A DNA stretch of 64,000 bases. Source: a virus. The notes under the pieces are model-generated. The model saw only the letters and a list, made by a program, of their open reading frames with translations. It was not told the origin of the DNA and made no database searches. Positions 3,744 to 58,170 of the stretch are shown piece after piece. Where the stretch lies: positions 1 to 64,000 of the IMG/VR virus record IMGVR_UViG_3300031825_000008, one strand, 5' to 3'. Each line of letters begins with the position of its first letter. Position 1 is the stretch's first letter. The position numbers and the translations under genes are program-made.

Positions 3744-4193
3744 ATGGCTACCACCACCGCAATGTGCACCAGTTTCAAGTCTGAAGTTGCTCAGGCGCTG
3801 CACAACTTTACCGCGTCTACCGGCAACACCTTCAAAGTGGCCCTGATCAAGGTCGGTCCCGCCGGTACTTACGGCGCGGCTTCGACCAACTATTCAAACA
3901 TCACCGGCAACTCGGACGAAGTGTCGGGGACTGGGTATTCGGCGGGAGGTACTGCTCTTACCAACGTTACCCCCACGACCTCTGGCACTACCGCCTATTG
4001 GACGTTTTCGCCCAATCCGTCGTGGACCACGGCCACTTTCTCGGCCACTGCTGCAATGATTTACAACACCTCCAGCAGCAACCGGGCCGTTGCCACTTAC
4101 GATTTCGGCGGCACGCAGACAGTGTCGGTCGGTACTTTCACCTTGGTCATGCCAACAGCGGATGCTTCGAACGCGGTCCTACGCATCGCGTAA
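3744..4193 (+). CDS. Conserved-looking virion-module protein of unknown function
   Basis: 149 aa, T/S/G/A-rich beta protein directly upstream of a fibre-like gene. Family resemblance is recalled only. Confidence 0.5.
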   Translation: MATTTAMCTSFKSEVAQALHNFTASTGNTFKVALIKVGPAGTYGAASTNYSNITGNSDEVSGTGYSAGGTALTNVTPTTSGTTAYWTFSPNPSWTTATFSATAAMIYNTSSSNRAVATYDFGGTQTVSVGTFTLVMPTADASNAVLRIA

Positions 4194-4202
4194 AGGACTG
4201 TC

Positions 4203-18991: not shown

Positions 18992-19392
18992 CTAACGTGT
19001 TTCCAATCTTCTCTTTTCAATATTTTATAGATCGTAGTATGTGACACCTTGAACCTCCTAGACAAAGAAAGTCCACTGTCGGTACTAGATCGTATTTGTC
19101 TTATGTCTTCCTCTGTTAATTTGGAGTTCACGTCTTCTTCTCCTTTGGGAGACACTAATCTACCTTTGTCTCTCATATCTCTATTGTTGTCTGCTTGCGT
19201 ACCCAAGAACAGATGCTCAATGTTGTAGCAAGAGGGGTTGTCACATTTGTGCAACACTTTAAGTCCAGTAGGTATAGGCCCTCGGTGTTCATCCCACGTC
19301 GCTCTATGTTTGAGCCACACTTTCTTTTTATACCACACCATTCCGTAACCGTGGGCGTTACGTGCTTTATGCCACTCAACACAATCGGTCAC
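18988..19392 (-). CDS. HNH homing endonuclease
   Basis: CVEWHKARNAHGYG...HRATWDEHRGPIP...VLHKCDNPSCYNIEHLFLGTQADNNRD. AT-richer than its flanks. Probable GTG start in a GTGA overlap (ORF is open to 19428). Confidence 0.85.
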   Translation of the reverse strand: MTDCVEWHKARNAHGYGMVWYKKKVWLKHRATWDEHRGPIPTGLKVLHKCDNPSCYNIEHLFLGTQADNNRDMRDKGRLVSPKGEEDVNSKLTEEDIRQIRSSTDSGLSLSRRFKVSHTTIYKILKREDWKHVR

Positions 19393-19814
19393 TTGAATTC
19401 TTTCCACCAATACAGAGAGTATGGCCACGCCCAGCCGGGCTGCGGGTCGAACATCATGTAGCCTGATTTTATGAAGTTGTTTGCCGATTCGACACTAGAA
19501 GTCGTGTCGGAGATTATGCCGTTCCACCCGTGTCGCTTGGCCCGTCTCTCCATTACCCGCATCAGACGACGCTGGAGCCCGTGCCCCCGAAACACGGGCA
19601 GGACCCCTACGCGGATAAAGTAACCGTAATTATCATACCACGTGGAAGGGATCAGACCTATGAACGCGGCGGGGATACGGCCCTGATAAGCGATCCACCA
19701 ATCCCCCTCTGCGTAGTTAGGGTGAGCAGTACCTTCTTCAAAGGTAGCAATATGTAATTCTCTAAGCAGGTCTTTTTCTTCTTCACCATCAACCTCTTCT
19801 ATTTTAAATTCCAC
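19389..19814 (-). CDS. GNAT-family N-acetyltransferase
   Basis: Acetyl-CoA motif A: RVGVLPVFRGHGLQRRLMRVMERRAKRHGW. Confidence 0.8.
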   Translation of the reverse strand: MEFKIEEVDGEEEKDLLRELHIATFEEGTAHPNYAEGDWWIAYQGRIPAAFIGLIPSTWYDNYGYFIRVGVLPVFRGHGLQRRLMRVMERRAKRHGWNGIISDTTSSVESANNFIKSGYMMFDPQPGWAWPYSLYWWKEFK

Positions 19815-20391
19815 GGCCCCCCTCCGTATAATGGGCCTTGATCGACGGAAGGACGGTCGTCTGCCACAACATCGACAGCTTGCCTTCCTCGGCGGGGAGG
19901 TCGCGCCACGACCCCTCCAACGACGTCATTCCCTTCTCGATGCAATATTCCACGACCCGGTTGCCCATTCTATGTTGTCCGATAAGGAACAATATCGCGT
20001 CGAGTTTGTCGGCGCAATGGACAATACGAATGGCCTCGTCGTGTTGTGCGTCAGTAGCCTCCATACGCTCGGACAGATCGAGAATAGACGGCATCTTTTC
20101 TTCCATCTGCTCGTAGATGAAATTAGCGGCCTTCTCTTCGTCGATCACATGTTTCTTGGCAGGACCGATAACGTCTCCGGTGATAGTCTCGTCGGCGTCG
20201 TGGATCAGGGCTTGCCACATTAGGTAATCCATCGGCCCCTTCCACCCAATCACGTCCGCCATAATTCGTGAATATATGGTCACGTAGAACGAGTGCGCGG
20301 CGACGTTGTCCCTATTTCCAGCCATAAGAATGGCCCAGCGCGGGACGAACGCCATGGTGCGCAGTTCAGGGGAGAAGGGGTTTGTTTTCAT
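19804..20391 (-). CDS. datZ: HD-domain (YfbR-like) phosphohydrolase; DatZ-type dATPase candidate
   Basis: NVAAHSFYV (H) and LIHDADETITGD (HD..D). Lies next to the MazG and PurZ genes. Confidence 0.6.
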   Translation of the reverse strand: MKTNPFSPELRTMAFVPRWAILMAGNRDNVAAHSFYVTIYSRIMADVIGWKGPMDYLMWQALIHDADETITGDVIGPAKKHVIDEEKAANFIYEQMEEKMPSILDLSERMEATDAQHDEAIRIVHCADKLDAILFLIGQHRMGNRVVEYCIEKGMTSLEGSWRDLPAEEGKLSMLWQTTVLPSIKAHYTEGGRGI

Positions 20392-20454
20392 TTAGGACCC
20401 ATATTTATGATAGTTCCAATCATGAACAGCGCAGACCCGATTAGATAACACCAA

Positions 20455-20829
20455 TTAGCCATCTTTTCTACCGAACCTCTCGTCCAGCTTAACGATGTTG
20501 GCGTCCATAATCTCTTCCAGCGTGAAGCCAAACCGCTGCGCGATCCTCACGAAGTAGTGCAACTGATCGCCCAGTTCGAGCAGCAGATCGGCCTTAATGT
20601 CCCGACCGTCCCGGACGTGCTTTTTCAGGAGTTCGACTACCTCGCCGGTCTCGCCCGCGTAGCCGGTCGCCATGATAAACAAACTCTTGAGATCGTTCTC
20701 ATAGTGATCGTCCGTCCAGTTGTTTCGAACATACGCCTGAAACGACAAGCTGTCGGTCTTCATTTTCGGCAGTGCGCCGAAACCTTCCACGATTTCGTAG
20801 TCCAAGTCCGGATTGAAAGGTCCACCCAT
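20455..20829 (-). CDS. mazZ: MazG-like all-alpha NTP pyrophosphohydrolase; MazZ candidate
   Basis: Motifs ETGEVVELLKKH and ELGDQLHY. 124 aa. Confidence 0.65.
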   Translation of the reverse strand: MGGPFNPDLDYEIVEGFGALPKMKTDSLSFQAYVRNNWTDDHYENDLKSLFIMATGYAGETGEVVELLKKHVRDGRDIKADLLLELGDQLHYFVRIAQRFGFTLEEIMDANIVKLDERFGRKDG

Positions 20830-21098
20830 TAATTCCTCCTATACTTCCAATAAAGCGCGAGCCATACGAGGTTCGGGAGTAGCGCTACAATCGTCCCGCC
20901 AAGTGACCACCACTGGTTGAGGTGGGGGAAGTAGTAAAGGTCCCACACGCCCCAAGCTGAGAACGCGGCGCATGGCCAGTAACTCACTCCGCGTACCGAT
21001 TTGTCCTTCCACGCCCGTCGCACGTTCAGCCAATTGAGCAGACCGGCGACGAGCAGAAAGCACGAGTTTATTAAGTCAGGTGACCACGTAATGCTCAC
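20829..21098 (-). CDS. Small 3-TM membrane protein (SemiSWEET/PQ-loop-like by eye)
   Basis: 89 aa with three hydrophobic helices; segment AWKDKSVRGVSYW lies between TM1 and TM2. Coupled at both ends (overlaps purZ by 23 nt; TAATG with mazZ). Confidence 0.4.
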   Translation of the reverse strand: MSITWSPDLINSCFLLVAGLLNWLNVRRAWKDKSVRGVSYWPCAAFSAWGVWDLYYFPHLNQWWSLGGTIVALLPNLVWLALYWKYRRN

Positions 21099-22170
21099 CC
21101 GCGTCCTCCGTGGTCGGCCCCCACTGGTAGATTACCTTGGGCGGCGGTTGCATCAACACTTTGCTGGCCGATTGGATTGAAGCGACGATCTGGTCGAACA
21201 TCGGCTTTTCCTTCACGTAGTTGCAGAAGGTCAGAAATACGTAATCTGGGTCGCAGATATTGAACGTCTCAACGAGTTGCTGCATAGAGAAGGTGAAAAC
21301 TCGACGCACCCGTTTGGTAACGGTCGTAATTTCAGCTTCAACTCCGAGTTCTTCCCATGAGGTTTCACGCTGGTCGTAAAAGTGAGGACCAGATGTTCCG
21401 AGTGTAGCTCCATCTTCCACGATGTTTCCAACTCGGATAGGGAACGTTCGTAGCGTGACCATCGTCCCGTTGTAAAACTGGGGATGGATGTTAGCATCTG
21501 AGAGTCCCTGATTAGGCGTACAGTCTCTAGAAGTTGTGTAAGGGTAAAAACCCGAGTGGTTGAGGCTGAGGGACACACCTTGCGGGACCTCCACGAGTAC
21601 CGAATTGCCAACGCGTAGCTGGCGGTTCAAATCCACCACACCTTTGGTGAACTTCGCGAGGAATGGGTGGTCCTTTGCCACCATACCGGTTCGCAGGACC
21701 TTGCGAGAGAGCGCTTCGCCGACCCCCTTGCGAGTGGACGCAATTTTTGTCTGCCCGCTGTCTGCTCTTCCCTCCGCCTCTTTACACTCGTCAGTGATAA
21801 CTGCGGCGTAGGGATGGATAAAAAGAGGTCCGTTGAACGGGTTGTCATTCAGTTCTTTCTCGAACCCCACCGGATCAATGATCGCACCAGCATTCAGATA
21901 CACGGTGCCCGCTTTGCCTGATCCGAGTTCGTCCTGCGCGATAAGCGACGCAGTAGGCAAATGAAACACAACCCTTCGACGGCCTTTGTGTATGGAAGTG
22001 TGGCCAGCCTGAGCAGCCGCATTAGTAGTGACAATGTCGAACGCGCGACCTTCTTTAGCGAGTTCATACGCGGCCCACGCAGCGGCGCATCCTTTTCCTT
22101 CACTTCCCCACTGACCCCCGATCAGTACGCTCGCGAACCCCTTTACTTCGAACCCCGTCAGTGGACGCAT
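21076..22170 (-). CDS. purZ: PurZ (PurA-family N6-succino-2-amino-2'-deoxyadenylate synthase)
   Basis: GGQWGSEGKG (PurA has GxQWGDEGKGK, so Asp is Ser here), AGHTS, ASTRKGVG, PQGVSLSLNHSGFYPYTTSR, IRVG and TKRVRR. Short form of 364 aa from ATG 22170, which has a GGAGAAG RBS. Confidence 0.78.
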   Translation of the reverse strand: MRPLTGFEVKGFASVLIGGQWGSEGKGCAAAWAAYELAKEGRAFDIVTTNAAAQAGHTSIHKGRRRVVFHLPTASLIAQDELGSGKAGTVYLNAGAIIDPVGFEKELNDNPFNGPLFIHPYAAVITDECKEAEGRADSGQTKIASTRKGVGEALSRKVLRTGMVAKDHPFLAKFTKGVVDLNRQLRVGNSVLVEVPQGVSLSLNHSGFYPYTTSRDCTPNQGLSDANIHPQFYNGTMVTLRTFPIRVGNIVEDGATLGTSGPHFYDQRETSWEELGVEAEITTVTKRVRRVFTFSMQQLVETFNICDPDYVFLTFCNYVKEKPMFDQIVASIQSASKVLMQPPPKVIYQWGPTTEDAGEHYVVT

Positions 22171-22567
22171 TAGACTTCTCCAATCTTTCTCTGATTTTAG
22201 CCAAGATTTGATCGATGGTGGACCCCAATACGCCGGTCTTGGCCCGGTCATCGATTAGGTTCCCGTAGGCTTGGGCGTCGAGTAGGATGGCGCAACAGGC
22301 CATGACGTGGCCGAGGTGATGGGCAAGGCTGTCAGGAGCGTCCTCTTCTCCGTCTGCCCAAAGTTGAAGGTGACGCGCCGCCGCTGCGATATAGACGCTA
22401 GCTTCGACCTTAGTCTCGCGGAATTTGTACGGACCATATTTGATTTCACCATCAAACATTGCGTGCGCCATGTGGGCCATTGCTACCGGGGGCAGTAGGA
22501 AGAGATTTAGCTTCTTCGCCCCCGCTGTGGCCTTAGGATTGGTTGGGAGTGTATTTGCAGATTTCAC
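22100..22567 (-). CDS. dATP/dGTP diphosphohydrolase-like protein (DUF5664-type N-terminal domain)
   Basis: NPKATAGAKKLNLFLLPPVAMAHMAHAMFDGEIKYGPYKFRE...AAARHLQLWADGEEDAPDSLAHHLGHVMACCAILLD matches the recalled family consensus. Confidence 0.55.
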   Translation of the reverse strand: MKSANTLPTNPKATAGAKKLNLFLLPPVAMAHMAHAMFDGEIKYGPYKFRETKVEASVYIAAAARHLQLWADGEEDAPDSLAHHLGHVMACCAILLDAQAYGNLIDDRAKTGVLGSTIDQILAKIRERLEKSNASTDGVRSKGVRERTDRGSVGK

Positions 22568-22958: not shown

Positions 22959-23124
22959 GTTCCTTGATCCTTACGATCTTAGCGGTCGGCTCCAGCACGT
23001 GCTCCGCAGCGTCCAGTTGTTTGCCCATCCCCGCGTCCACCGCGTCCTGAAAGGCGTCTTCCCAGTTGTCGCGGATCGGGGCGATAGCCACTCCGTTCAC
23101 TCTGAACTGATACATGTAACTCAT
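22858..23124 (-). CDS. Hypothetical protein
   Basis: 88-aa ORF. The first ~55 aa look coding; the tail runs 100 nt into the nuclease gene in another frame. Confidence 0.35.
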   Translation of the reverse strand: MSYMYQFRVNGVAIAPIRDNWEDAFQDAVDAGMGKQLDAAEHVLEPTAKIVRIKEHEGTGISKSDSESGAGGGGFRPQNVEPVSGGGS

Positions 23125-24974
23125 TCTTCAACTCCAAAAGTGGCCTCTGCCCAGTTGCGACCTTCGCCTGCATCGACCGCCATCGGGACGTCCAACTTTA
23201 TCAGGCAGTTGGGTCCAAAGTCAGTCATAATTTGAAGGCAACGGTCGTAATGCTTGCGGTTGTCTTCCGAGAACGAATAGTCGATAGCATCGTGAACGTT
23301 GTTGAGCAGGCTGATCGGTCGCCCCTCTGACGCCAGATAGTCGTCGATTTCGACCATCTTCAACTTGAGCACGTCCGCGTTGCCGCACTGTAGCAGGCGG
23401 TTCACCGCCGTGTAGGCTTTGTTCGGGTCATTAAGTCGTGCACGGCGACCCAATAGGGATAGCACATAACCTCGGGCGCGCATCGTCTGCTCGGCGCGCT
23501 TCTGGAGCGGCTTAATCTCAGGGAGACGTTTGAAATACTCCCTAAGCTGACCATCCACCTTCTCAGGGTCCGCACCGTATTTCTCAACGATCACCTTCTT
23601 CCCGCCGCCCGTAATGAGGGTCTGGTTGATGCGCTTACCGACCTCACGGGCGTCCTTCTGTGCCGCCTTGTCCATCAACTCCCATTCAGGGTTCATGGCC
23701 TTGGCAACCGCCGTGTGGGCGTCTTCGAACGGTTGCTTACGATATCCGTTGAGAAGAACTTCACTGCGGCTGTAATAGGCGAGCAGACGTGGTTCGCACT
23801 GGCTGTAGTCGACCGAACCCCAAATTTCGCCGTCGTCAGGGACGAAAATCGAACGATGGATGCGGCCAATTTCGGCGTTACGCTTGTTGGCCTGCTGCAT
23901 GTTGGGGTTGCTGGACGACAGCCGTCCGGTCACCGTCCCGTATTCGTCTCCCCGCAGCTGGTTGAATTCGGGGTGGACGCGCCCTTTCCACAGATGGGTG
24001 TCGATCATCGGCTCAATGAACGAATTGAGAAGGTTCGACCACTTGCGAACGGCCACTATGTTCTGGCCCGCCGGGTACTTTATAAGCCACGCTTCCGGAA
24101 ACGACGGTGAGCCCTTAGGCGTCGTCGGCCAGTCCGTGTGCCCAGCCTCTTCCATGATCTTACGCACCTGAGAGGGGGCGCGCGAGTTGAAATCATCAGG
24201 CAGCTTGCGAAGGGCGTCCTCGCGTTTGCTCTCGGCCAGCGCCTTGATATTCATTAGGCGCTCTTCGTCGATCTTGATACCGTGCAACATCATTCGTGCC
24301 AGCACCGGGATCATTCGACATTCAATGTCGTGCACCTTGGCCAGTTCTTGGTCCATGATGCTTGTCACTTGTTTGTAGCGCAGCTGCCACGTCGACGTGC
24401 CGTCCGTCTCCGCGTAGTCGACGGCGATAGGGTCATCACCCGCTAGGCACCAATAGTAGCCCATCGCGCCCTTGCCTTTGCCTGCGGCCTCGGGCACGTT
24501 AGCCATAATATGGTCGTAAATGGCGATCTTTTTAGGCTGCACCCCCGCTAGTTGAGAGCAAACGTCCAGACTGAACCCCGACTGCCATTCGTTCAGGAGT
24601 GGAGCGTTAATCGCGGTGTCTTCGAACCGGCCCTCGATCTTGAGACCCTGCCGGTACATGAATTTGATATCGAAGTTGAAGTTGTGGCCGAACTTGAACA
24701 CGTCCTGACGGGACAGGCGCTTGATGATCGCTTGCTCCATCGGGTGGATAGAACCATCCCACCCATCGTTGGTCTGCGGGACGGTCACACCTTCGATGTT
24801 ACCTCCGGGCCTGTGCCGGAACGGCAGGTAATACGAGTCGTCCGGACGCTCGCCAAACGTGAGCACGTACCCGATAATGTGGTTCTTGCGCCAGTCGAGG
24901 CCAGTAGTTTCGACGTCGACACAGACTTCATTAGAGACTTCGAGACGCTTGAGGGCTTCTTCAACTCTGCTCAC
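23121..24974 (-). CDS. dpoZ: Family-A DNA polymerase with 3'-5' exonuclease; DpoZ candidate
   Basis: Exo motifs VDVETTG, HNFNFD and YAETD. Pol motifs VDYSQCEPRLLAY (A), KRINQTLITGGG (B) and NVHDAI (C). GTG start in a GTGA overlap (ORF is open to 25094). Confidence 0.8.
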   Translation of the reverse strand: MSRVEEALKRLEVSNEVCVDVETTGLDWRKNHIIGYVLTFGERPDDSYYLPFRHRPGGNIEGVTVPQTNDGWDGSIHPMEQAIIKRLSRQDVFKFGHNFNFDIKFMYRQGLKIEGRFEDTAINAPLLNEWQSGFSLDVCSQLAGVQPKKIAIYDHIMANVPEAAGKGKGAMGYYWCLAGDDPIAVDYAETDGTSTWQLRYKQVTSIMDQELAKVHDIECRMIPVLARMMLHGIKIDEERLMNIKALAESKREDALRKLPDDFNSRAPSQVRKIMEEAGHTDWPTTPKGSPSFPEAWLIKYPAGQNIVAVRKWSNLLNSFIEPMIDTHLWKGRVHPEFNQLRGDEYGTVTGRLSSSNPNMQQANKRNAEIGRIHRSIFVPDDGEIWGSVDYSQCEPRLLAYYSRSEVLLNGYRKQPFEDAHTAVAKAMNPEWELMDKAAQKDAREVGKRINQTLITGGGKKVIVEKYGADPEKVDGQLREYFKRLPEIKPLQKRAEQTMRARGYVLSLLGRRARLNDPNKAYTAVNRLLQCGNADVLKLKMVEIDDYLASEGRPISLLNNVHDAIDYSFSEDNRKHYDRCLQIMTDFGPNCLIKLDVPMAVDAGEGRNWAEATFGVEE

Positions 24975-25174
24975 GCTTCCGTCACTTTCTCGTACATTCG
25001 GTTCAGAACGGCCCATTGCTTGGGACTGAGGTACATTCGCGCTCCGTATTCCTTGTAGCGCTTCTCTTGGTCCGCGAAGAATCCCGCCTCCCACTCGCTC
25101 AGCTTGGTGCGACGGTCGGCGAGGGTGATCATGTATTCCCGTAGCTTCTGCTCTTCTTCGTCAGTCAACGGCAT
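24971..25174 (-). CDS. Hypothetical protein
   Basis: GAGGAAG RBS; 67 aa. Confidence 0.5.
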   Translation of the reverse strand: MPLTDEEEQKLREYMITLADRRTKLSEWEAGFFADQEKRYKEYGARMYLSPKQWAVLNRMYEKVTEA

Positions 25175-36071: not shown

Positions 36072-36701
36072 CTAGTCAATCGGTAGGTCCCGCGCCTCAA
36101 GTTCCTCCAAGCACACGAAGCGTGTTCCTCGGATTTCAATGTCGCGGGATTGGTGCCAATGACCGAATACCCACAGCTTGGGTGAGTGCGCCGACCACAT
36201 GGACTGGAACGCCTGCCGGGTACGTGTTCCGCCGGGTTCCAAGTCCTGCTTGTAATGGAGGCCGAACAACTCCACCGCCACGTCCTGCGGACAGTCATGA
36301 GTTACCATTACTCGCGGCTTGGTCTCGACGAACTTATCAGTGAGCGCGTAAAGCTGCTCGGTCGAGCACTCTTCGTCAGGCCACCAGCTGTAACCTTCGA
36401 TTCGCATCGCGCGATCAATGGAAGTCGCGCCACCGATAAACATCATACCCTGTTCGACGTGTCCATCTTCGATCCACTGGCTATGCTTGCGACACGCGCC
36501 GGGGTTATCATGATTACCTCGAATGAAACGGTGACCACCGGGCTCCATGAGATAATAGGGGGGATTTCCTCCTTCCTCACCGTGGGGAAACTTTCGGAAC
36601 CCTACGCCCATGTCGCCCATCTGAATAGTTGGACCCGACGACGAACGTAGAATCCCCTTGTACCTCTTATACTTCCCGTGAACGTCACCAATAAAAATCA
36701 C
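36072..36701 (-). CDS. Calcineurin-like metallophosphoesterase (lambda-PP-like)
   Basis: Motifs IFIGDVHG, GDMG, GNHDN and GHWH. GTG start in a GTGA overlap. Confidence 0.75.
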   Translation of the reverse strand: MIFIGDVHGKYKRYKGILRSSSGPTIQMGDMGVGFRKFPHGEEGGNPPYYLMEPGGHRFIRGNHDNPGACRKHSQWIEDGHVEQGMMFIGGATSIDRAMRIEGYSWWPDEECSTEQLYALTDKFVETKPRVMVTHDCPQDVAVELFGLHYKQDLEPGGTRTRQAFQSMWSAHSPKLWVFGHWHQSRDIEIRGTRFVCLEELEARDLPID

Positions 36702-36946
36702 GACACTGTCTCCAATTGACTGTCCGCCGTGCGGTGCCAGCCCTTGCTCCATTTAACGTTGCCCTTGCGGCGCTTCTTCTGTTCCCATGGCGGGAACACT
36801 TCCTCCCACACTCCGTGCCACGCGACCCAAAACACGCCGGTCGGGACGTTGTCGGCATCAACCTGCACGACGGTCTGCAAGTCACGCTCCGGGCTCACCC
36901 CCGGAGCGTGTTGCGAGGTCGGCCACTTAGGGCGACGGGGTGCCAT
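36698..36946 (-). CDS. Hypothetical protein
   Basis: TGATG coupling; 82 aa. Confidence 0.4.
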   Translation of the reverse strand: MAPRRPKWPTSQHAPGVSPERDLQTVVQVDADNVPTGVFWVAWHGVWEEVFPPWEQKKRRKGNVKWSKGWHRTADSQLETVS

Positions 36947-48984: not shown

Positions 48985-49551
48985 ATGCATCCATATGAAA
49001 TTCACGTCACCATTCACAACAACGACCGCCCCCTTCTGGAAGAGAAGGCCATCATGGGCAAGCTTCCGGAAGGTCTCAAAATCCTTCGGATCGAAAATTA
49101 CAACATCACCGGCAACTCTTACCCGGAGACGGTGACGAAGCATGTGGAGCGCGGCGAAGACGCGTTCGCGGTGATCCTCAAGGCGAACAAGTTTAAGGAA
49201 CAAGTCAGGGACTGGGCGATTCGTGTCAAGCGCGTCAAGGTCGAGGTCCCACCTTATCACCCGTGGGTGGCCGAGAAGCGCGGTCTATATTTCGAGGCCC
49301 ACATGCGAAGCGGCAGCATCCTAATGGGTGACGCCCGCGAACTGGGAATGTTCGCCTCCGTCCTTCGCGGCAAGACGGGCGCGTATTACACCATGCGCGA
49401 GCGTGACGACACTTTCGAGGACTTCAACGAGCGGCTGCAACTGCGCCTCAAGCATCTGGCGAACCGGGGCCAAGTGCCCGAGCGGTCCCCTGAAGTCGAA
49501 TACTGCATCTATGACGACAACGAGCAACTAGATAACATGTGGATGAAATGA
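48985..49551 (+). CDS. Hypothetical protein
   Basis: 188 aa. A single HxT motif (EIHVTIH) near the N-terminus. No family is assigned. Confidence 0.5.
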   Translation: MHPYEIHVTIHNNDRPLLEEKAIMGKLPEGLKILRIENYNITGNSYPETVTKHVERGEDAFAVILKANKFKEQVRDWAIRVKRVKVEVPPYHPWVAEKRGLYFEAHMRSGSILMGDARELGMFASVLRGKTGAYYTMRERDDTFEDFNERLQLRLKHLANRGQVPERSPEVEYCIYDDNEQLDNMWMK

Positions 49552-49958
49552 TCACCTCTTTTCGCGGCGTGTACCGCTTCTTGTCGAATTTTTACCCGGC
49601 ACCAGTGTTGCTGGATTATCACGTGTACCCAACCGTGGAGCACGCCTATCAGGCGGCGAAGTCACTCGACCCAGATTACCGAGTATTGGTGCAATATGCC
49701 GATACCCCCGGTGATGCTAAGCGTATGGGGCGGCGAGCCGTTCTCCGTTCGGACTGGGACATGGTCAAGTTGGAAGTGATGGAGCGTCTGGTTCGAGAGA
49801 AGTTTAGATGGCCTGAATTTAGCAAAAGGCTAAAAGCTACGGGCGACGAGGAACTGATAGAAGACAACACATGGGGTGACACGTATTGGGGCGTGAGTGG
49901 CGGTAAAGGCGAGAATCATCTAGGCAAAATTCTAATGAAGGTGCGAAGCGAACTATGA
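49548..49958 (+). CDS. NADAR (YbiA/DUF1768) domain protein
   Basis: FRGVYRFLSNFYP...YPTVEHAYQAAK...WGDTYWG. ATGA coupling. Confidence 0.8.
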   Translation: MITSFRGVYRFLSNFYPAPVLLDYHVYPTVEHAYQAAKSLDPDYRVLVQYADTPGDAKRMGRRAVLRSDWDMVKLEVMERLVREKFRWPEFSKRLKATGDEELIEDNTWGDTYWGVSGGKGENHLGKILMKVRSEL

Positions 49959-50248
49959 CCTACATCAAAGGTATTCCTCACCATAAGCCTTTCCGCAAAG
50001 TGTCCCTAGACATGGACGACGAATTCCGGTGGGGCGCGCACAAGAATCGCACCGTCCGTTGGGTGCTGGCGAACCACCCCAGCTACATCGAGTGGCTGAC
50101 CAAACTGGGTGCTACTGCCGGAATCCGTTTCACTCCCGCCGTTCTCGCCCAGTTCGAACTGGAGCGCAACAAGCCCACCTACAACCCCGACCTTAAGCCC
50201 TACGACGTTTACAAGGAACGTTGGGGCATGTCGTTTGTGCCCAAATAG
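49955..50248 (+). CDS. Hypothetical protein (DUF3820-like segment by eye)
   Basis: WGAHKNRTVRWVLANHPSYIEWL. ATGA coupling. Confidence 0.45.
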   Translation: MTYIKGIPHHKPFRKVSLDMDDEFRWGAHKNRTVRWVLANHPSYIEWLTKLGATAGIRFTPAVLAQFELERNKPTYNPDLKPYDVYKERWGMSFVPK

Positions 50249-50303: not shown

Positions 50304-50768
50304 ATGGCCCTTATTACCAAAGGTTCGTGGACGCGCCCCAGTGACGGCAAAGTGTTTCGCATCGGCCAGCGCGTGCGGGGGTGGAGTTCTCTTGGCAGCA
50401 TCGGCAAGACCAAGGAAGGGTACACCGGCACGGTCGTCCATTTCGACCCTGACTGGTCGGTCAGTCATGGGGCGATAGTACAGTTGAGACTATTCGGGCT
50501 GAACCCCTATGGCTATCCAGAGGGTCGGTTGGTATCCGTGTGGTGCAAGGGATTGGAGCCGCTAGCCGCCCCTCTCACCATTGATTCCCGCCTCACCTGT
50601 CGCGACCCTTCCATCAAGGTCCTCTCCGTTAGCGCGACAGGCGACAAGGACCGCCCAATCGGCGCGACCGTGCGCGTCCAAGGCCGCGAGTTGGCTCTAA
50701 CCTACCCGGAGCACGGGCAGTTCTATGAGGGCTTCGAGCAGGCCATCGACCTCATAGGTGCGCAATGA
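50304..50768 (+). CDS. Tandem paralog 1 of 8
   Basis: TAGGAGA RBS; FRIGQRVRGW; C-terminal ...GRELALTYPEHGQFYEGFEQAIDLIGAQ. Confidence 0.6.
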   Translation: MALITKGSWTRPSDGKVFRIGQRVRGWSSLGSIGKTKEGYTGTVVHFDPDWSVSHGAIVQLRLFGLNPYGYPEGRLVSVWCKGLEPLAAPLTIDSRLTCRDPSIKVLSVSATGDKDRPIGATVRVQGRELALTYPEHGQFYEGFEQAIDLIGAQ

Positions 50769-51190
50769 CCGAGCGAAGGTTCAAGCCCGGCGACCGCGTC
50801 ATCATGAAGAGGCCCGGAAGTTTTGCTTCCCATATACCGAATCTGCAAGACGCCATTGCTGTCATCCAGAAACAGATAGATGGGACGGTGTGGTTCAAAT
50901 TTGTGGACCCTAAAGCGGCTGCGGCGTGGAAGAGAGAGTATCCACAAGACACCGCCAACAACTGCTACGCCCACCGGTTCGACTTGTTATCGGTTGACAT
51001 TAGGATCGACACCGTCCGCACCACCCGTTCGGGACTCGCCGTCTCCAACGTCGCCCGTGACGGCGACCTGATCCGCGCGGACGTTGCGGTCGACGGGCGA
51101 ACCATGACTCTGCGCTACGACCTGTCGGGGTCGTTTTATCCGGGCCACGAGTGTCCAATCGACCTGATCGGGGAGACTGCAAATGTTTAA
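50765..51190 (+). CDS. Tandem paralog 2 of 8
   Basis: ATGA coupling; FKPGDRVIM; ...GRTMTLRYDLSGSFYPGHECPIDLIGETANV. Confidence 0.6.
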   Translation: MTERRFKPGDRVIMKRPGSFASHIPNLQDAIAVIQKQIDGTVWFKFVDPKAAAAWKREYPQDTANNCYAHRFDLLSVDIRIDTVRTTRSGLAVSNVARDGDLIRADVAVDGRTMTLRYDLSGSFYPGHECPIDLIGETANV

Positions 51191-51599
51191 GATGCCACAA
51201 GTGGGCGACCACATTGAATTAGTTGATCCGGGCGTGGGTACGTCTTACGTCAGTTTCAAAGGACAACGCGCCGTGGTGGAGAGGATAAAGGAGCCCGGCC
51301 ACAAGGACACGGCCATTGTCGAGCCCAAGTTTGACGACCCGGCGGTGAACGACAGGTGGTGGAGAAGCGTGCAGGGGGGTTGTTATGCCCGGCGTTGGAA
51401 AGTTATTGACGAGTCCTTCAAGGACGTCTCCCGTCTCGTGACCCGCAACGGGTATAAAATCCTCGCCATTCACCGGCACCCGGACTGTATCGAGGCGACG
51501 ATCAAGTTGCGCAACCGGGAACTGACGCTCCATTACGGACTGACGGGCCGGTTCTACAAGGGCATGGAGTGCCCGGTCGACCTCGTGGAGGCAAAATGA
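51183..51599 (+). CDS. Tandem paralog 3 of 8
   Basis: 8-nt overlap; PQVGDHIELV; ...NRELTLHYGLTGRFYKGMECPVDLVEAK. Confidence 0.6.
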   Translation: MFKMPQVGDHIELVDPGVGTSYVSFKGQRAVVERIKEPGHKDTAIVEPKFDDPAVNDRWWRSVQGGCYARRWKVIDESFKDVSRLVTRNGYKILAIHRHPDCIEATIKLRNRELTLHYGLTGRFYKGMECPVDLVEAK

Positions 51600-52018
51600 A
51601 GAAGTTCAAGGTAGGGGACAAGGTAAAGCTTCGCTATCTGAGTTATCATCGCGTCGGCATTACGCATGAAATGCTCAGCATGATGAAGGATAAGAAGAGA
51701 GGGGTCTATGTTATCCGCCAGTTGGATAAGACGGGTCTCGGGGACGAATTTGCTAAGTTAGAAGGAGATTTGTGGAATTGGTCGTGGCCGCTGGAGGCGC
51801 TGGAACTTGGCGACAGACCCCTCAACATCGACAAGGTCAAGGGTGTGCGCGACCCCAAGCGTATCGACTTCAAAGGCGTGAAGAAGACTAGGTCCGAGGC
51901 CCGCCCGTTCAGCGGCACCGTCGTCGTGGCCGGGCGCAAGCTGCAACTGACTTGGGGCGCGGATGGCCGGTTCTATGAAGGCTTCAATTCGCCCGTCGAC
52001 CTCGTGGAGGCAAAATGA
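51596..52018 (+). CDS. Tandem paralog 4 of 8
   Basis: ATGA coupling; FKVGDKVKL; ...GRKLQLTWGADGRFYEGFNSPVDLVEAK. Confidence 0.6.
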   Translation: MKKFKVGDKVKLRYLSYHRVGITHEMLSMMKDKKRGVYVIRQLDKTGLGDEFAKLEGDLWNWSWPLEALELGDRPLNIDKVKGVRDPKRIDFKGVKKTRSEARPFSGTVVVAGRKLQLTWGADGRFYEGFNSPVDLVEAK

Positions 52019-52416
52019 AATACCCCAGACTTCAGCCCGGAGACCGGGTACGCTATGTCGGTCATAACCGAAATTGGGTGAAGGACGGAGTAACCGGTGT
52101 AATTATAGAGGATGCGCTGGACGATAGCAATGATTCCAAGGGCTATCGCAAAGTCTCAATCAAGCTGAGCAACCGCGTGCACGTTTGTCGTTTGGAGCGG
52201 TACAAGCTTGAGGTTATCGACGTCCCTATCAACCCTTCGCGCGTACGCTCCACCCGCTCCGGTCTCCCTGTCGCTAACGTGGAGAAGACCGACGGTGATC
52301 GCCCGCTCCGCGCCGAAGTGTTCGTCGACCGGCAGTGGCTCACGCTGACTTTCGCGGCGAGCGGCCACTTCTATGGTCACGTTGACCAACCCATCGACCT
52401 CGTGGAGGCCAAATGA
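52015..52416 (+). CDS. Tandem paralog 5 of 8
   Basis: ATGA coupling; LQPGDRVRY; ...DRQWLTLTFAASGHFYGHVDQPIDLVEAK. Confidence 0.6.
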   Translation: MKYPRLQPGDRVRYVGHNRNWVKDGVTGVIIEDALDDSNDSKGYRKVSIKLSNRVHVCRLERYKLEVIDVPINPSRVRSTRSGLPVANVEKTDGDRPLRAEVFVDRQWLTLTFAASGHFYGHVDQPIDLVEAK

Positions 52417-52811
52417 CTAGGTTCCAAGTAGGGGATCGCGTGGTGGTGGTCGACACTCGTTATGACGATGGTCATTCCGCAGAGTTATTGAAGGGTTTGC
52501 TTGGTAAAAAGGGAACGGTGTCTAGTCCTTATCCTTATGACCATCTTGATTATTGTCTTAGTGTTAAATGGGATGACCCGTCTATTCATTGTGGGGATTG
52601 TTATGCGTGGCGCTTTGAAATAGATAAAGGATCGCTGCTTGCTGTGGATCGTCCCATCACCACTCGCGACGGCCAACCCGTGACCGTCGAGGCCACCGGA
52701 GACCCTGCGCGCCCCTACGCCGCGACCGTGCGCGGCCAGCGTCTCACTTTTGAGCCGACTGGGCGCTTCTACCCCACCATGGACCAACCGATCGATCTGG
52801 TGAACACATGA
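52413..52811 (+). CDS. Tandem paralog 6 of 8
   Basis: ATGA coupling; FQVGDRVVV; ...GQRLTFEPTGRFYPTMDQPIDLVNT. Confidence 0.6.
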   Translation: MTRFQVGDRVVVVDTRYDDGHSAELLKGLLGKKGTVSSPYPYDHLDYCLSVKWDDPSIHCGDCYAWRFEIDKGSLLAVDRPITTRDGQPVTVEATGDPARPYAATVRGQRLTFEPTGRFYPTMDQPIDLVNT

Positions 52812-53224
52812 GCACGCAAGGCGGTTTTAAAATCGGGCAACGGGTGCGTTGTAAATATTCGGGCAACGTATTTGATGCTTATGGATTCAAAGTTTACGGG
52901 GAAACCGGCGTGGTAGGGTTTGGAGGTGTTCCAGAGTATGTGTATGTAATGTGGGACAACCCCAGACTGCGTGAGCATTTCAACAAGGGTGGAAATATCA
53001 GCCACGGTGGCGGATGGCACCCTGATGACTTTGAGAGCGCTGGAATACCGGTAGACCTTACTCGACCCGTGAAGTGCCGTAACGGCGGGACGGTCACCGT
53101 CACTCGCGTCGACGACAAGGACCGACCGTATCGCGCCACCGTCAAAGGTATCGAACTGTCGTTCGACGAATATGGCAATTTCGTCCCCGGCCAAGAGTGC
53201 CCAATCGATCTGGTGAACACATGA
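52808..53224 (+). CDS. Tandem paralog 7 of 8
   Basis: ATGA coupling; FKIGQRVRC; ...GIELSFDEYGNFVPGQECPIDLVNT. Confidence 0.6.
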   Translation: MSTQGGFKIGQRVRCKYSGNVFDAYGFKVYGETGVVGFGGVPEYVYVMWDNPRLREHFNKGGNISHGGGWHPDDFESAGIPVDLTRPVKCRNGGTVTVTRVDDKDRPYRATVKGIELSFDEYGNFVPGQECPIDLVNT

Positions 53225-53664
53225 AAATGATGACCAATCCCAAAGTGGGCGACCGTGGCATTTGCCGATGGGGCAGTCCGCACACTAACCTGTCGGGTGT
53301 GTATCCATGGGGCAAAACGGCGACTGTTATCGAGGTTGAGGTGGGTGCCAATTATGTGAGGGTCCGATTCGATGACCCCGAGGTTCAACGAGCGTGCGAG
53401 CGAGCGTGCGGCCACCTTGGTTTCCGATGGGCGAGGGGGTATTGGGAAGCGACAAAAGGTGGTGGTCTTCTCCTTCCAGCTGACAAGGTTGCCAAGTTCC
53501 AGACCCGTGACGGTCGGCCAGCGTCAGTAATTCGCCATGTCGGCGGCGAGCGTCCGTTTCAGGCGTATATCGAGTTCAGTGGTCGACGGCTGGACTTGTC
53601 ATTCGACCAATTTGGCCGGTTCTATCCCGACGTGGATTCTCCATTCGATCTGGTGTGCAAATGA
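53221..53664 (+). CDS. Tandem paralog 8 of 8
   Basis: ATGA coupling; PKVGDRGIC; ...GRRLDLSFDQFGRFYPDVDSPFDLVCK. Confidence 0.6.
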   Translation: MKMMTNPKVGDRGICRWGSPHTNLSGVYPWGKTATVIEVEVGANYVRVRFDDPEVQRACERACGHLGFRWARGYWEATKGGGLLLPADKVAKFQTRDGRPASVIRHVGGERPFQAYIEFSGRRLDLSFDQFGRFYPDVDSPFDLVCK

Positions 53665-54212
53665 AAGACATATGGTTTACTTCCGACACCCACCTTGGCC
53701 ATGCCAACATTTTGAAATTTACCGGCGACGACGGTAAACTGATACGGCCCGGCTTCTCATGCGTCGAGGAAATGGACGAACGCATCATTGACAATTGGAA
53801 TAAGGTCGTTAAGCCGGGCGACCACGTTTGGCACTTAGGTGACTTTTCGTTCGGAGGCAAGGACAAGATCGCGGGGTACGTTGGGCGTCTCCATGGTCGC
53901 AAGCGCCTCTGCGTCGGCAACCACGATCCTGTCAAGAAGATTGCCCCTTTCTTCGACAAGGTGGTCCTGTGGCGCATCTTCAAAGAGTTCAATTTCACCT
54001 GCACTCATATCCCTTTGATGCCGGGTCAGATGCGCAAGACCGCCTATAACGTCCATGGCCATATTCACCAGAACTTGATGCAGGAATATTACACGTCCAC
54101 CTTGACCGGGAACGAACTACACAAAGACGACCGTCGTTACGTCAACATCTGCGTGGAACATACCAATTATACTCCGGTCCATCTGGACGAGATAATCGCC
54201 CGCTGCAAATAA
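53661..54212 (+). CDS. Calcineurin-like metallophosphoesterase
   Basis: Motifs FTSDTHLGH, GDF, GNHD and GHIH. ATGA coupling to paralog 8. Confidence 0.75.
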   Translation: MKDIWFTSDTHLGHANILKFTGDDGKLIRPGFSCVEEMDERIIDNWNKVVKPGDHVWHLGDFSFGGKDKIAGYVGRLHGRKRLCVGNHDPVKKIAPFFDKVVLWRIFKEFNFTCTHIPLMPGQMRKTAYNVHGHIHQNLMQEYYTSTLTGNELHKDDRRYVNICVEHTNYTPVHLDEIIARCK

Positions 54213-55534: not shown

Positions 55535-55623
55535 CCTTGACATACAAACACCCGCTGACCTAGCACCCCCGTCCGTGGTATCCTGTGCGTAGAGCGCTTG
55601 TGCTCTGGCATAGGAGAACGACC

Positions 55624-56265
55624 ATGAAGACCAGCACCATCGTGTGCCTCGTAATCGGGGCGGGCCTGCTCGTCACGAGTTGCGCCTCTTACAACAACCT
55701 CGTCAACCTGCGCGAAGACGTCAACAACGGCGCGGCCCAGACGCAGAACGTCCTTCAGCGGCAGGCCGACCTGATCCCCAACATGGCCAACACCGTGAAG
55801 GGCGCGGCGGGGTTCGAGACCAAGGCCCTCACCGACGTTATCGACGCGCGCTCGCGCGCCACTCACCCAATCGTGATCGCGGACGGCAAGCAGTGCGCCG
55901 CCGTCACCGCGCCGGAACGGCCCGACGTGCCGAAGTGCAACCCGTCGCAGCTGAACGACGACCAGCTTCGCCAGTTCACCGAGAACTCGCGGGCGCTCAT
56001 GTCGTTCAACGTGAACGCGCTGCGCGAGGCGTACCCGAACCTCAAGTCGGTCGGCCTGTTTGCGAACCTCATGGTTACGCTCGAGGGTTCGCAGAACCGC
56101 ATCACGGTCGAGCGCATGAAGTGGCAGCGCAGCATCGCCTCTTACAACAAGTCGGTGCAACGCATCCCCGGCAGCATCGTCGCCAACGTCGGCGGCTTCA
56201 AGACACTCCCGTACTTCGAGGCCGATGCGTCCGCGCAGCGCGCCCCCGAGGTCAAGTTCAACTAA
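55624..56265 (+). CDS. LemA-family lipoprotein
   Basis: Lipobox LLVTSC. YNNLVNLREDVNNGAAQTQNVLQRQADLIPNMANTVKG fits the LemA consensus. AGGAGAA RBS. Confidence 0.8.
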   Translation: MKTSTIVCLVIGAGLLVTSCASYNNLVNLREDVNNGAAQTQNVLQRQADLIPNMANTVKGAAGFETKALTDVIDARSRATHPIVIADGKQCAAVTAPERPDVPKCNPSQLNDDQLRQFTENSRALMSFNVNALREAYPNLKSVGLFANLMVTLEGSQNRITVERMKWQRSIASYNKSVQRIPGSIVANVGGFKTLPYFEADASAQRAPEVKFN

Positions 56266-56296: not shown

Positions 56297-57388
56297 ATGG
56301 ATTGGGTCCTTTTGTTTGCTGCGTGCTGTATGGCCATCCTTGGCCTATTGGCACATTGGAATAACGACCGCCTGTTCAGGGGGACGTTTGTGATTGCGGC
56401 GATTTTGTTGTTTTTCTTCTCGCTGCCGGTAATCCGTCCCCGCGCCGCTGAAGTTCCCCCGGTCGCCCGCGTAACCGACCTCGTCGGCAAGCTGTCCAAG
56501 GGCGAGCGCGACAAGTTGTCGGCCCGCATTCAGCAGATCGAGAAGTTGCCCGGCTCGCCTCAGGTGGCGATCCTGATCCAGAATATGCTCGACGTCCCGA
56601 TTGCGGACCACGCGCAGCGGGTGTTTGTGACGTGGAAGCTGGGGTCGAAGGACCGGGACAACGGCATCCTGATCCTTATTGCACCCGAGCAGCGACAACT
56701 GCGCATTCACACCGGCTACGGGGTCGAACCGGTGCTGCCCGACGTGAAGACGGCCTATATTTCGTCGACCATCCTCATACCGAACATCGTGAAGAACCGG
56801 TATTACGACGCGCTCGACGGAACGCTGAACGTGATTGCGTCGTCGCTTGCGGCGGAGAGTAGCGTTCAACCGGCGAGGGCCGACATGGGAGCCGTCTTCC
56901 TTGTGGTGTTGATCGCGTTGGGTATTCCGGTGTTGATCATTTGGGCGGTCACGCGAAAACCCCAAAGAACCGCAGATGCCACACGCCGGGACGCCACCGG
57001 CAACAGCGAGAAATACCGCGACCGTGGGCGGACCTACGCCACGACTGCGGCGGGCGGCATGGTCGGGGCTGCAGCAGCGGCCCGCGCGGCGCGGCGTCGG
57101 CCCGTCGAGGACCCGCCTCGTCGTGACAGCGGCGGCGTCGGTGACGCCATCTTGGGTGCGGCGGTCGGCTATGCCGTGGGGTCGGCGTTGAGTGGCTCGT
57201 CGTCTCCGTCCGAGCCCTCCGAACCGTCCTTCTCGGGTGGCGGCGGCGATTCCGGCGGCGGCGGGTCGACCAGTTCATGGGGCGACAGTTCGTCCTCTTC
57301 CGACAGCAGCAGTTCGTCGTCCTCTTACGATAGTGGTTCGTCGGGTGGTGGCGATTCTGGCGGCGGGGGTGGTGGAGGCGGTGAGTAA
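56297..57388 (+). CDS. TPM-domain (YgcG-like) membrane protein with a Ser/Gly-rich tail
   Basis: VTDLVGKLSKGERDKL...QVAILI...DNGILILIAPEQRQLRIHTGYG; TM segment; C-terminal S/G low complexity. Confidence 0.75.
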   Translation: MDWVLLFAACCMAILGLLAHWNNDRLFRGTFVIAAILLFFFSLPVIRPRAAEVPPVARVTDLVGKLSKGERDKLSARIQQIEKLPGSPQVAILIQNMLDVPIADHAQRVFVTWKLGSKDRDNGILILIAPEQRQLRIHTGYGVEPVLPDVKTAYISSTILIPNIVKNRYYDALDGTLNVIASSLAAESSVQPARADMGAVFLVVLIALGIPVLIIWAVTRKPQRTADATRRDATGNSEKYRDRGRTYATTAAGGMVGAAAAARAARRRPVEDPPRRDSGGVGDAILGAAVGYAVGSALSGSSSPSEPSEPSFSGGGGDSGGGGSTSSWGDSSSSSDSSSSSSSYDSGSSGGGDSGGGGGGGGE

Positions 57389-58114: not shown

Positions 58115-58140
58115 TTTCAATCACCCGGTGAGGGAACCCC

Positions 58141-58170
58141 TTGCCGGGTGCACTGTATTTGTGATATTTT
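58141..58170 (+). promoter_or_regulatory. Promoter placed for a leaderless transcript
   Basis: TTGCCG-18 nt-TGa-TATTTT. The ATG at 58177 lies 6 nt after the -10. Preceded by hairpin CACCCGG..CCGGGTG (58122-58150). Confidence 0.4.

Follow-up and report, generated by a model that had tools for sequence, protein, structure and literature searches.

Eight consecutive genes at positions 50304-53664 of a 64-kb stretch of DNA from a metagenomic phage (the window) encode a family of small, predicted two-domain β-barrel proteins that, judging from searches of sequence databases, is previously undescribed and whose C-terminal domain would be new to phage annotation. The array genes are whole-gene duplicates in which the N-terminal domain is diverging faster, and we tentatively favor, at somewhat short of an even chance, a reading in which an accessory operon supplies them as a repertoire of binders of host or defence components. 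The array consists of eight + strand genes coding for 132-154 aa each, as established from the ORF list and a read-out of the gene junctions, and it takes up 3361 nt, or 5.3% of the window, bearing out an earlier estimate of about 5 percent and the view that phages do not usually invest so heavily in one such family. The genes and the features that surround them are as follows.

48985..50248, + strand, upstream ATGA-chained trio encoding a 188-aa protein, NADAR (49548-49958) and a 97-aa protein
50304..50768, + strand, g1, 154 aa, the first gene of the array
50765..51190, + strand, g2, 141 aa, overlaps g1 by ATGA
51183..51599, + strand, g3, 138 aa, overlaps g2 by 8 nt (ATGTTTAA)
51576..51599, + strand, example of a dual-use junction, ...GTG GAG GCA AAA TGA, read as V-E-A-K-stop
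51596..52018, + strand, g4, 140 aa, overlaps g3 by ATGA
52015..52416, + strand, g5, 133 aa, 'RAEVFVDRQWLTLTF' subtype
52413..52811, + strand, g6, 132 aa, the protein chosen for the structure model
52808..53224, + strand, g7, 138 aa
53221..53664, + strand, g8, 147 aa, true start at ATG 53221 (ATGA overlap with g7)
53661..54212, + strand, metallophosphoesterase, 183 aa, ATGA-coupled to g8
58122..58150, + strand, terminator-like hairpin with a 13-bp stem between the array's accessory block and the terminase genes (consensus match only)

The ATGA junctions are located at 50765, 51596, 52015, 52413, 52808, 53221 and 53661, with the 8-nt g2/g3 overlap at 51183-51190, so that the ORF list and junction read-out agree exactly with the first-pass annotation's description of eight tandem, translationally chained genes running into a metallophosphoesterase. 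The true start of g4 is the ATG at 51596 and not the GTG at 51569 of the ORF list, based on the ATGA overlap and on a gene call (11293-11715) in L001. All eight reading frames are intact and the window is free of pseudogenes. At the junction spanning 51576..51599 a GGAGG Shine-Dalgarno sequence and the ATG of the next gene both lie inside the terminal codons, with a Shine-Dalgarno duplex energy of -9.3 kcal/mol as compared to a background mean of -2.8, and the 20 bases upstream of the g4 start recur before g5 and, with one base different, before g6. The recurrence of the protein ends is thus due in part to coupling signals (Shine-Dalgarno, start and stop) that occupy conserved C-terminal codons, making the array a clear case of translational coupling signals embedded in conserved C-terminal coding. 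Repeats at the DNA level among the copies show 60-82% identity and are confined to the last 55-70 nt; recent homogenisation is not seen beyond the junctions, and we have rejected gene conversion on this basis.

A C-terminal module of ∼60 aa is common to all eight proteins, as had been noticed by eye. Using an HMM built from seven of the copies to detect the eighth we obtained scores of 52-66 bits in each case (E 1e-16 to 2.5e-12 at Z=1e6), BLASTP gives mutual matches for 28/28 pairs of array proteins, and a six-frame scan establishes that the window contains exactly eight copies and no others. The proteins end as originally listed, shortly after DLV or DLI (DLIGAQ, DLIGETANV, DLVEAK in three cases, DLVNT in two and DLVCK), and all copies retain the residues R, G, F, D and L that are invariant across an alignment of 58 sequences. 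The conserved P-I-D-L-V prompted us to consider a sliding-clamp-binding C-terminal peptide of the QL[SD]LF type, but the Q/L/F consensus is absent, and we discarded a clamp-binding or other docking peptide once the 58-sequence structure model had placed DLV in the last β strand with a pLDDT of ∼95. An origin through internal duplication, with the N half related to the C half, was rejected as well (hhalign probability of 0.1%).

The N-terminal halves were said to open with a common SH3/KOW-like hook, F(K/Q)(V/I/P)G(D/Q)(R/K)V, and to be otherwise unalignable. A hook is indeed present in all eight, in a form looser than this exact pattern in g3 (PQVGDHI), g5 (LQPGDRV) and g8 (PKVGDRG). The second claim is not supported, since BLASTP finds full-length alignments for five pairs (g2/g3, g2/g5, g1/g4, g4/g5 and g7/g8) and the match between the family profile and its relatives extends from position 3 to about 145. 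The N halves are nevertheless highly divergent, with leave-one-out detection successful in only 4/8 cases. The AT-richer stretch pointed out in g6 is readily confirmed, with a GC content of 0.447 (GC3 of 0.38) in the N half versus 0.667 (GC3 of 0.75) in the C half, and GC3 values pooled over the eight genes are 0.59 and 0.755 for the N and C halves, respectively. However, the N half lies below the C half in GC and GC3 in all five of the related arrays that we have checked, arguing that the lower N-half GC is a property of the family and not a mark of foreign origin, and we have therefore abandoned the proposal that the N modules are horizontally acquired. Shuffling of the modules is not supported either, as the N halves appear, on the modeled structure, to be one diverged SH3-like domain, of the type that also occurs in multi-repeat proteins of phages.

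In order to obtain a structure we have used AlphaFold with the 58-sequence alignment, choosing g6 as the protein to be modeled. The resulting model (pLDDT of 92.4) has residues 1-70 as a probable SH3-like barrel and residues 82-131 as a five-strand β C module whose last strand is DLV. The low confidence for DLV in a model computed from 8 sequences, as compared to the value given above for 58, reflects the depth of the alignment. A Foldseek search of the PDB with the whole g6 model returned no match at E<1e-3. The N domain by itself aligns to PetP (TMt of 0.62-0.66, rmsd of 2.6-3.3 Å) and also to the C-terminal domain of nitrile hydratase β and the KOW domain of eS4, with Foldseek probabilities of about 1.0 but E values of 0.02-0.2, and its BFVD neighbours are phage proteins of ∼70 aa, one of which is annotated as DUF4314. 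According to the model the fold is two small β domains without a match to a catalytic family. SH3-like barrels are typical modules for binding protein or nucleic acid. Values of pI range from 5.2 to 9.8 among the paralogs, with g6 and g7 acidic and the others basic, indicating that surfaces have diversified and that a uniform nucleic-acid-binding charge is absent.

A profile search of 1.84 billion representative proteins produced 117 matches at E<=1e-3, 109 of them non-self and the remaining 8 the window proteins; we estimate that about 75 of the 109 carry the C module, and the others match in the N domain only. It was this exhaustive search of representatives that recovered the family, a word-indexed protein search having given almost only window proteins. 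Domain fusions offer no clue to function, as longer relatives have nothing beyond additional SH3-like repeats or coiled coil. The first-pass annotation could not assign the C module to a named family, and searches of Pfam, PHROG, NCBIfam and the PDB are in accord with this. None of the eight proteins matches Pfam DUF4314 (PF14192), SH3_15 (PF18346) or MIB_HERC2 (PF06701) at E<=1, and among 58 family members none matches DUF4314 or SH3_15 and one matches MIB_HERC2 (E of 0.093); only distant multi-repeat relatives pass threshold, such as P0063 on DUF4314 with 38 bits. For SH3_12 (PF18129) g5 reaches 13.2 bits (E of 0.093) against a threshold of 26.2 bits, and weak matches are found in 5/58 members (best E of 5.8e-4). 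The best PHROG profile match for the eight proteins has an E of 0.041, where E<=1e-3 was needed, there is no NCBIfam family at E<=0.1, and the best match in a PDB sequence search (HERC2, E of 0.023) covers the N domain only. A tblastn search of GenBank phages with g6 and the C-module consensus found nothing at E<=1, and the sole match in a DNA search of the same phages was the metallophosphoesterase gene. A degenerate DNA pattern for G-R-F-Y-x5-P-x-D-L-[VI], which fits some family members only, yielded 2 loci in IMG/VR, 30 in GTDB and 55 in JGI metagenomes, all chance matches in that none contains the C module by HMM. Our literature search on DUF4314 or comparable arrays returned nothing relevant.

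The similarity to the DUF4314, Mind-bomb/HERC2 (MIB_HERC2, SH3_15) and Xrn1 SH3-like (SH3_12) barrels, which include small single-domain proteins and multi-repeat proteins of phages, lies in the N-terminal ∼70 aa, which begin with the F-K-V-G-D-R-V strand and are predicted to adopt an SH3-like fold, and threshold-passing multi-repeat proteins of DUF4314, SH3_12 and SH3_15 match the N part of the array family profile. These families lack the C-terminal module, however, and coupled arrays of such genes are not known.

The relatives that could be traced sit in syntenic arrays within related metagenomic phages, at the same genomic position as in the window. The array would also be a marker for a rare phage lineage known from metagenomes alone. 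Copy number, for which the first-pass annotation had proposed a comparison, lies between 2 and 8 or more (7 genes in L004, 5 modules in L009, at least 8 in L010, at least 4 in L011, 4 in L097 and 2 in L099). Identities between the window and L009 are 82% for the portal, 60% and 57% for the large and small terminases, 69% for the metallophosphoesterase and 59% for the 97-aa gene, as opposed to 30-46% for the best array pairs; to judge by these comparisons, the array genes evolve much faster than their neighbours. Reciprocal best matches with L004 pair g1 with the first gene of that array, g2-g3-g4 with the fourth to sixth and g5 with the second, and most of these orthologue pairs score above within-array paralogs, while gene order differs between the two arrays. 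Such partial colinear orthology argues that the paralogs are old and have been individually retained. The distinct N-terminal type of g1 (..DGKVFRIGQRVRGW..) is also present in the first gene of the L004 and L009 arrays, and the 'RAEVFVDRQWLTLTF' subtype of g5 has orthologues in L004 (L004_2), P0020 and P0023. No aligned pair within the array exceeds 42% identity, and hence there have been no recent duplications. The paralogs, 30-40% identical, are saturated for dN/dS, and identity within the available strain pairs is 99.9-100%.

We have asked what these patterns imply for function. A reading in which the copies are for the most part redundant and drift without distinct roles would accord with the highly divergent N halves and with the variable copy number among phages, but all copies are intact, the invariant residues persist across 58 sequences, recent duplications are lacking and orthologues have been kept across phages; the size of phage genomes is, moreover, strongly constrained, and we regard drift as very improbable. 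A second alternative is that the paralogs are subunits of one hetero-oligomer, such as a ring or a filament built from SH3-/Sm-like barrels and held together by the C module, for which ATGA coupling would secure matched stoichiometry. Coupling at every junction, old and individually conserved paralogs with a colinear block of three, and a constant plus a variable module suited to a common oligomerisation interface all speak for it, and colinear retention together with strict coupling would fit complex subunits equally well. A copy number of between 2 and at least 8 is hard to square with a fixed multi-subunit machine, gene order is rearranged between arrays, and we consider such an assembly possible, if on the whole unlikely; were it correct, the array would encode an unusual multi-paralog phage machine.

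The gene at 53661-54212 is, by profile matching, a calcineurin-like metallophosphoesterase (Pfam Metallophos, 27.4 bits versus a 21.5-bit cut-off; phrog_547, E of 1.5e-53), and its orthologue adjoins the 3' end of the array in L009 and L010. A 55-nt spacer separates g1 from the upstream trio, of which the 188-aa and 97-aa genes occupy the same position in L009. A by-eye HVTI motif had raised a 2H-phosphoesterase assignment for the 188-aa protein, which we dropped as Pfam, PHROG, NCBIfam and the PDB lend no support. The NADAR gene is located two genes upstream of the array, and phage NADAR enzymes are reported to act in counter-defence against DarTG1 (PMC11257639). The same phage carries a PurZ/MazG/HD gene cluster, and the lineage appears to make 2-aminoadenine DNA. 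Scans for promoters and terminators gave results near background.

The array lies upstream of, and is co-oriented with, the genes for terminase, portal and structural proteins, and might encode virion-associated or assembly accessory proteins, such as ejected internal proteins or decoration proteins, from a site directly ahead of the packaging genes. A parallel is offered by the internal proteins of T4-type phages, which are small, paralogous virion proteins. Against this, accessory genes (metallophosphoesterase, LemA, TPM) that span ∼5 kb and the terminator-like hairpin intervene before the small terminase gene, the array proteins have no PHROG structural match and a common N-terminal targeting sequence is absent, so that a virion role seems to us highly unlikely.

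The explanation that we favor is that an old multigene family of small soluble two-domain β proteins, tandemly duplicated and with a C module specific to the family, would be expressed as a single translationally coupled operon in an accessory block of a lytic-type phage, a block that also contains a NADAR ADP-ribosylhydrolase and the metallophosphoesterase and is situated upstream of the packaging genes. Activity would be stoichiometric binding rather than catalysis, with the fast-diverging surfaces, chiefly of the N barrel, giving each paralog its own target among host proteins or defence components, and with the conserved C module as a common scaffold or partner-docking surface; the size of such a repertoire of binders or inhibitors would differ (2 to 8 or more) between related phages. 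Expression timing, binding activity and host or defence targets are what we infer here. A host-interaction or anti-defence arsenal, as first suggested, is consistent with the faster-than-flank divergence, the copy-number variation and the NADAR neighbour, although fast divergence could reflect relaxed constraint instead of an arms race. With anti-CRISPR loci and host-takeover clusters the array shares small soluble proteins in an accessory block, content that varies among relatives, turnover faster than that of core genes and a NADAR neighbour; such clusters, however, usually mix unrelated families, whereas here there are eight paralogs of one. Among the matches obtained we found no homology to known anti-defence or host-takeover proteins. 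A loose precedent is a small phage protein of two domains, the N-terminal one SH3-like, that acts as an inhibitor of a type IV restriction enzyme (PMC11322646). Should the paralogs be target-specific binders they would constitute a compact natural library of small β-barrel inhibitors or adaptors.

Binders of another kind, KOW- or Tudor-like proteins that attach to nucleic acid or to the transcription/translation machinery and either redirect the RNA polymerase, ribosomes or helicases of the host or handle the phage's modified DNA, are distinctly unlikely. The best, though weak, structural neighbours, namely Spt5 tandem KOW, tandem Tudor and the barrels of eS4 and eL21, do point this way, as do weak Pfam matches of relatives to the RNA-polymerase-binding barrels CarD_TRCF_RID, PcrA_UvrD_tudor and RapA Tudor, and the PurZ/MazG/HD cluster. 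All of these matches are sub-significant, however (Foldseek E>=0.005, TMq of about 0.3-0.4; Pfam below cut-offs), charge is not uniform, and the need for eight versions of one binder is not obvious. Spt5 KOW and the tandem Tudors of 53BP1, UHRF1 and Crb2 likewise have two small β domains per ∼130-aa unit and are the sole whole-length structural neighbours, non-significant at E>=0.005, TMq of 0.25-0.39 and rmsd of 7-14 Å; unlike in these readers, the N and C halves of the array proteins are not detectably homologous, and neither an aromatic cage nor a KOW motif has been noticed in them. A more specific and doubtful variant of the repertoire that we favor would make the proteins a previously unrecognised class and the array a modular adaptor system, with the five-strand C module docking all paralogs on one common partner, the hypervariable N barrel picking host or defence targets and copy number setting target breadth. 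The common partner could be a hub of the host or an effector of the phage, for which the co-translated metallophosphoesterase is one candidate.

The array comprises eight + strand genes, g1 to g8, that span 50304-53664 and run directly into a gene for a metallophosphoesterase.

Genes of the array and the gene that follows it (g1-g8 from ORF list and junction read-out)
50304-50768, + strand, g1, 154 aa
50765-51190, + strand, g2, 141 aa
51183-51599, + strand, g3, 138 aa
51596-52018, + strand, g4, 140 aa
52015-52416, + strand, g5, 133 aa
52413-52811, + strand, g6, 132 aa
52808-53224, + strand, g7, 138 aa
53221-53664, + strand, g8, 147 aa
53661-54212, directly after g8, metallophosphoesterase gene (Pfam Metallophos, phrog_547)

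As the first-pass annotation had accurately described, seven junctions of this chain are ATGA overlaps and one, g2/g3, is an 8-nt overlap (ATGTTTAA). The product of the metallophosphoesterase gene scores 27.4 bits with Pfam Metallophos (cut-off 21.5 bits) and matches phrog_547 at 1.5e-53. Gene calls on the window's public contig (ENA ERZ27250632 k141_570006, 67,231 bp) match our read-out of g1-g8. Two antisense ORFs of 141 and 173 aa (52769-53415, - strand) overlap g7 and g8; because they lack homologues, and conservation lies with the genes of the + strand, we treat them as spurious. The ATGA chain begins earlier than had been noted, at a trio (48985-50248, + strand) of a 188-aa gene, a NADAR gene (49548-49958) and a 97-aa gene, separated from g1 by a 55-nt spacer.

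Repeats at the DNA level are limited to the last 55-70 nt of the array genes. Three of these, g3, g4 and g5, end in GTG GAG GCA AAA TGA (V-E-A-K-stop), which places GGAGG six bases 5' of the next ATG, so that the last codons are used three times over, as protein end, as Shine-Dalgarno sequence and as overlap with that ATG. The anti-Shine-Dalgarno duplex energy at the GGAGG junctions is -9.3 kcal/mol, against a background mean of -2.8 in the window. Where g7, g8 and the phosphoesterase gene start there is only GGTG (-2.8 kcal/mol), and these genes presumably rely on termination-reinitiation at ATGA. Such translational coupling is one argument for a hetero-oligomeric assembly of the paralogs, the main rival to the reading that we favor below, if an unlikely one.

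The module of about 60 aa that had been reported at the C terminus of all eight proteins (the C module) is real and beyond chance: an HMM trained on any seven copies recovers the remaining one with 52-66 bits (E 1e-16 to 2.5e-12 at a nominal database size of 1e6), and 28 of 28 protein pairs match in BLASTP. A six-frame scan of the 64-kb window returned exactly eight copies and none beyond g1-g8. In the same leave-one-out procedure four of the eight N halves are found with 13-23 bits and the other four give no match. Since several pairs align from end to end in BLASTP (g2/g3, g2/g5, g1/g4, g4/g5 and g7/g8), the N halves have diverged rather than being unrelated, and their earlier description as unalignable is not supported. 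No homology is detectable between the N and C halves.

The AT-rich patch that had been pointed out in g6 does exist (GC3 of 0.38 in the N half vs 0.75 in the C half). The asymmetry, however, extends to the pooled genes (0.59 vs 0.755) and has the same direction in five related metagenomic arrays (L004, L009, L010, L011 and L097), which makes it a property of the family and not a sign of foreign N modules; shuffling or horizontal acquisition of these modules, as had been proposed, is thus not supported.

Searches of g1-g8 against named families gave nothing with E below 0.09 in Pfam, below 0.04 in PHROGs or at E<=0.1 in NCBIfam, and the best match of the family profile among all PDB sequences (E 0.023) covers the N domain only. 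In tblastn against 50,697 GenBank phage records g6 had no match and the C-module consensus none at E<=1. With the eight paralogs alone AlphaFold gave a pLDDT of 73 and a low-confidence C-terminal tail, and with a 58-sequence family alignment the g6 model reached pLDDT 92.4 and pTM 0.69. In this model residues 1-70 form an SH3-like barrel and residues 82-131 five strands (ITT, VEA, YAATV, QRLTF and DLV), in which the conserved G-x-F-Y-x5-P makes up a long loop and D-L-V, also conserved, is the closing strand; every protein ends just past DLV because the domain ends there. Foldseek found nothing in the PDB at E<1e-3; the barrel resembles PetP, the nitrile hydratase beta C-terminal domain, KOW barrels and the Mind-bomb repeat, and the whole-length neighbors, Spt5 tandem KOW and tandem Tudor, are poor (TMq about 0.3). 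Binding to machinery or nucleic acid is a reading of the paralogs that we hold to be somewhat less probable than a hetero-oligomer. A BFVD search with the weaker model returned uncharacterized phage proteins of ~70 aa, one annotated DUF4314.

When 1.84 billion representative proteins were scanned exhaustively in HMMER, the eight-sequence profile yielded 117 matches at E<=1e-3, 47 of them at <=1e-10, the eight at <=1e-30 being the window's own proteins. About 75 non-self matches, counted from the HMMER table, cover the C module; these relatives have 120-165 aa and are likewise built in two parts, and of those that were aligned nearly all stop a few residues past D-L-V. About 30 others are long proteins matched in the N part alone, several times each, where Pfam finds SH3-like repeats of the DUF4314, SH3_12, SH3_15 and NHase_beta_C types. 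Each of the 20 clusters that we looked up is an unnamed singleton; Logan assemblies account for 19 and ENA for one. The proteins constitute a new family, with a new C-terminal module on an N-terminal barrel that probably belongs to a known class, and no comparable coupled array of many paralogs was found described in the literature searched.

Arrays in related metagenomic loci
L004 (56.7-kb contig): 7 coupled genes
L009 (16.8 kb): 5 modules, of which a frameshift fuses the first two
L010 (3.8 kb): at least 8 copies
L011: at least 4 copies
L097 and L098: 4 copies
L099: 2 copies, one with N-N-C layout

Eight copies are at the top of the observed range. Synteny is conserved: in L009 the 188-aa and 97-aa genes precede the array, in this order, and the metallophosphoesterase, small genes, terminase and portal follow it; the L010 array leads into the metallophosphoesterase; and in L011 these small genes and LemA come after the array. 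The loci therefore belong to relatives of the window phage. The 294-aa 'fused' member of L009 (P0024, 1789-2673) consists of two array genes that a frameshift has united, with the last part of the first C module running on in another frame (1982-2236); this could reflect an assembly error or real pseudogenization or fusion. At L009 3833-4396 an orthologue of the window metallophosphoesterase, 69% identical to it, is encoded on the + strand, so the public call there, a 140-aa minus-strand ORF (3926-4348), is probably a mis-call.

Flanking genes of the window and L009 are 57-82% identical overall (portal 82%, large terminase 60%, small terminase 57%, metallophosphoesterase 69%, 97-aa gene 59%, 93-aa gene 68%); best matches between array genes are only 30-46% identical. 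Within the aligned arrays no pair exceeds 42%, so that no duplication is recent. Reciprocal best hits pair g1 with L004_1 (the first array gene of L004), g2-g3-g4 with L004_4-5-6 and g5 with L004_2, most of them outscoring within-array paralogs. Orthology is partial and partly colinear, and the paralogs are therefore older than the split of these phages. Each has been kept, their divergence outpaces that of core genes, and the arrays change in copy number and order. Age and colinearity would again suit a hetero-oligomer, against which stands a copy number that ranges among phages from 2 to 8 or more. That the copies are redundant and drifting is improbable in our estimate, and a virion-associated role equally so.

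Ranking these readings from anatomy and comparative data, we tentatively prefer, at somewhat less than even odds, a repertoire of non-enzymatic proteins that would bind host or defense components without catalysis. Small, predicted binding-type folds, diversified surfaces (pI 5.2-9.8), faster evolution than the neighbors, a copy number that varies and a location among accessory genes all favor such a repertoire, and the host-interaction or anti-defense arsenal suggested at first pass is plausible.

The array belongs to an accessory block on the + strand that also contains NADAR, the metallophosphoesterase, small genes and a LemA/TPM pair; one report describes phage NADAR enzymes as counter-defense against DarTG1 (PMC11257639). 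The LemA-like gene (55585-56265, +), with a homologue also downstream of the array in L011, is followed by the TPM-domain gene (56297-57388, +; Pfam TPM_phosphatase, E 3e-25). A terminator-like hairpin, by consensus match only, lies between this block and the terminase genes (58122-58150). Among isolated phages the closest in portal protein, Alcaligenes phage vB_Af_QDWS535, is only 40% identical. Replication genes (PolA-type polymerase, primase, helicase) lie in a minus-strand block at 17.5-47.3 kb, which also holds a second, unrelated metallophosphoesterase (36072-36752, -; phrog_1649, E 2.4e-34) with a homologue of about 60% identity in L004. Adjoining the polymerase is a Z-genome-like (2-aminoadenine) cluster of adjacent genes (19804-22251 and 23121-25094, both -). 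The gene at 21076-22251 (-) encodes a PurZ-like homologue of adenylosuccinate synthetase (phrog_1211, E 1.3e-58; Pfam Adenylsucc_synt), and those at 20455-20829 (-) and 19804-20391 (-) are MazG-like and HD/YfbR-like; in this phage diaminopurine may take the place of A. At 18988-19428 (-), between the genes for the helicase and the HD-domain protein, an HNH_3 endonuclease is encoded that has a helix-turn-helix region and is possibly a homing endonuclease.
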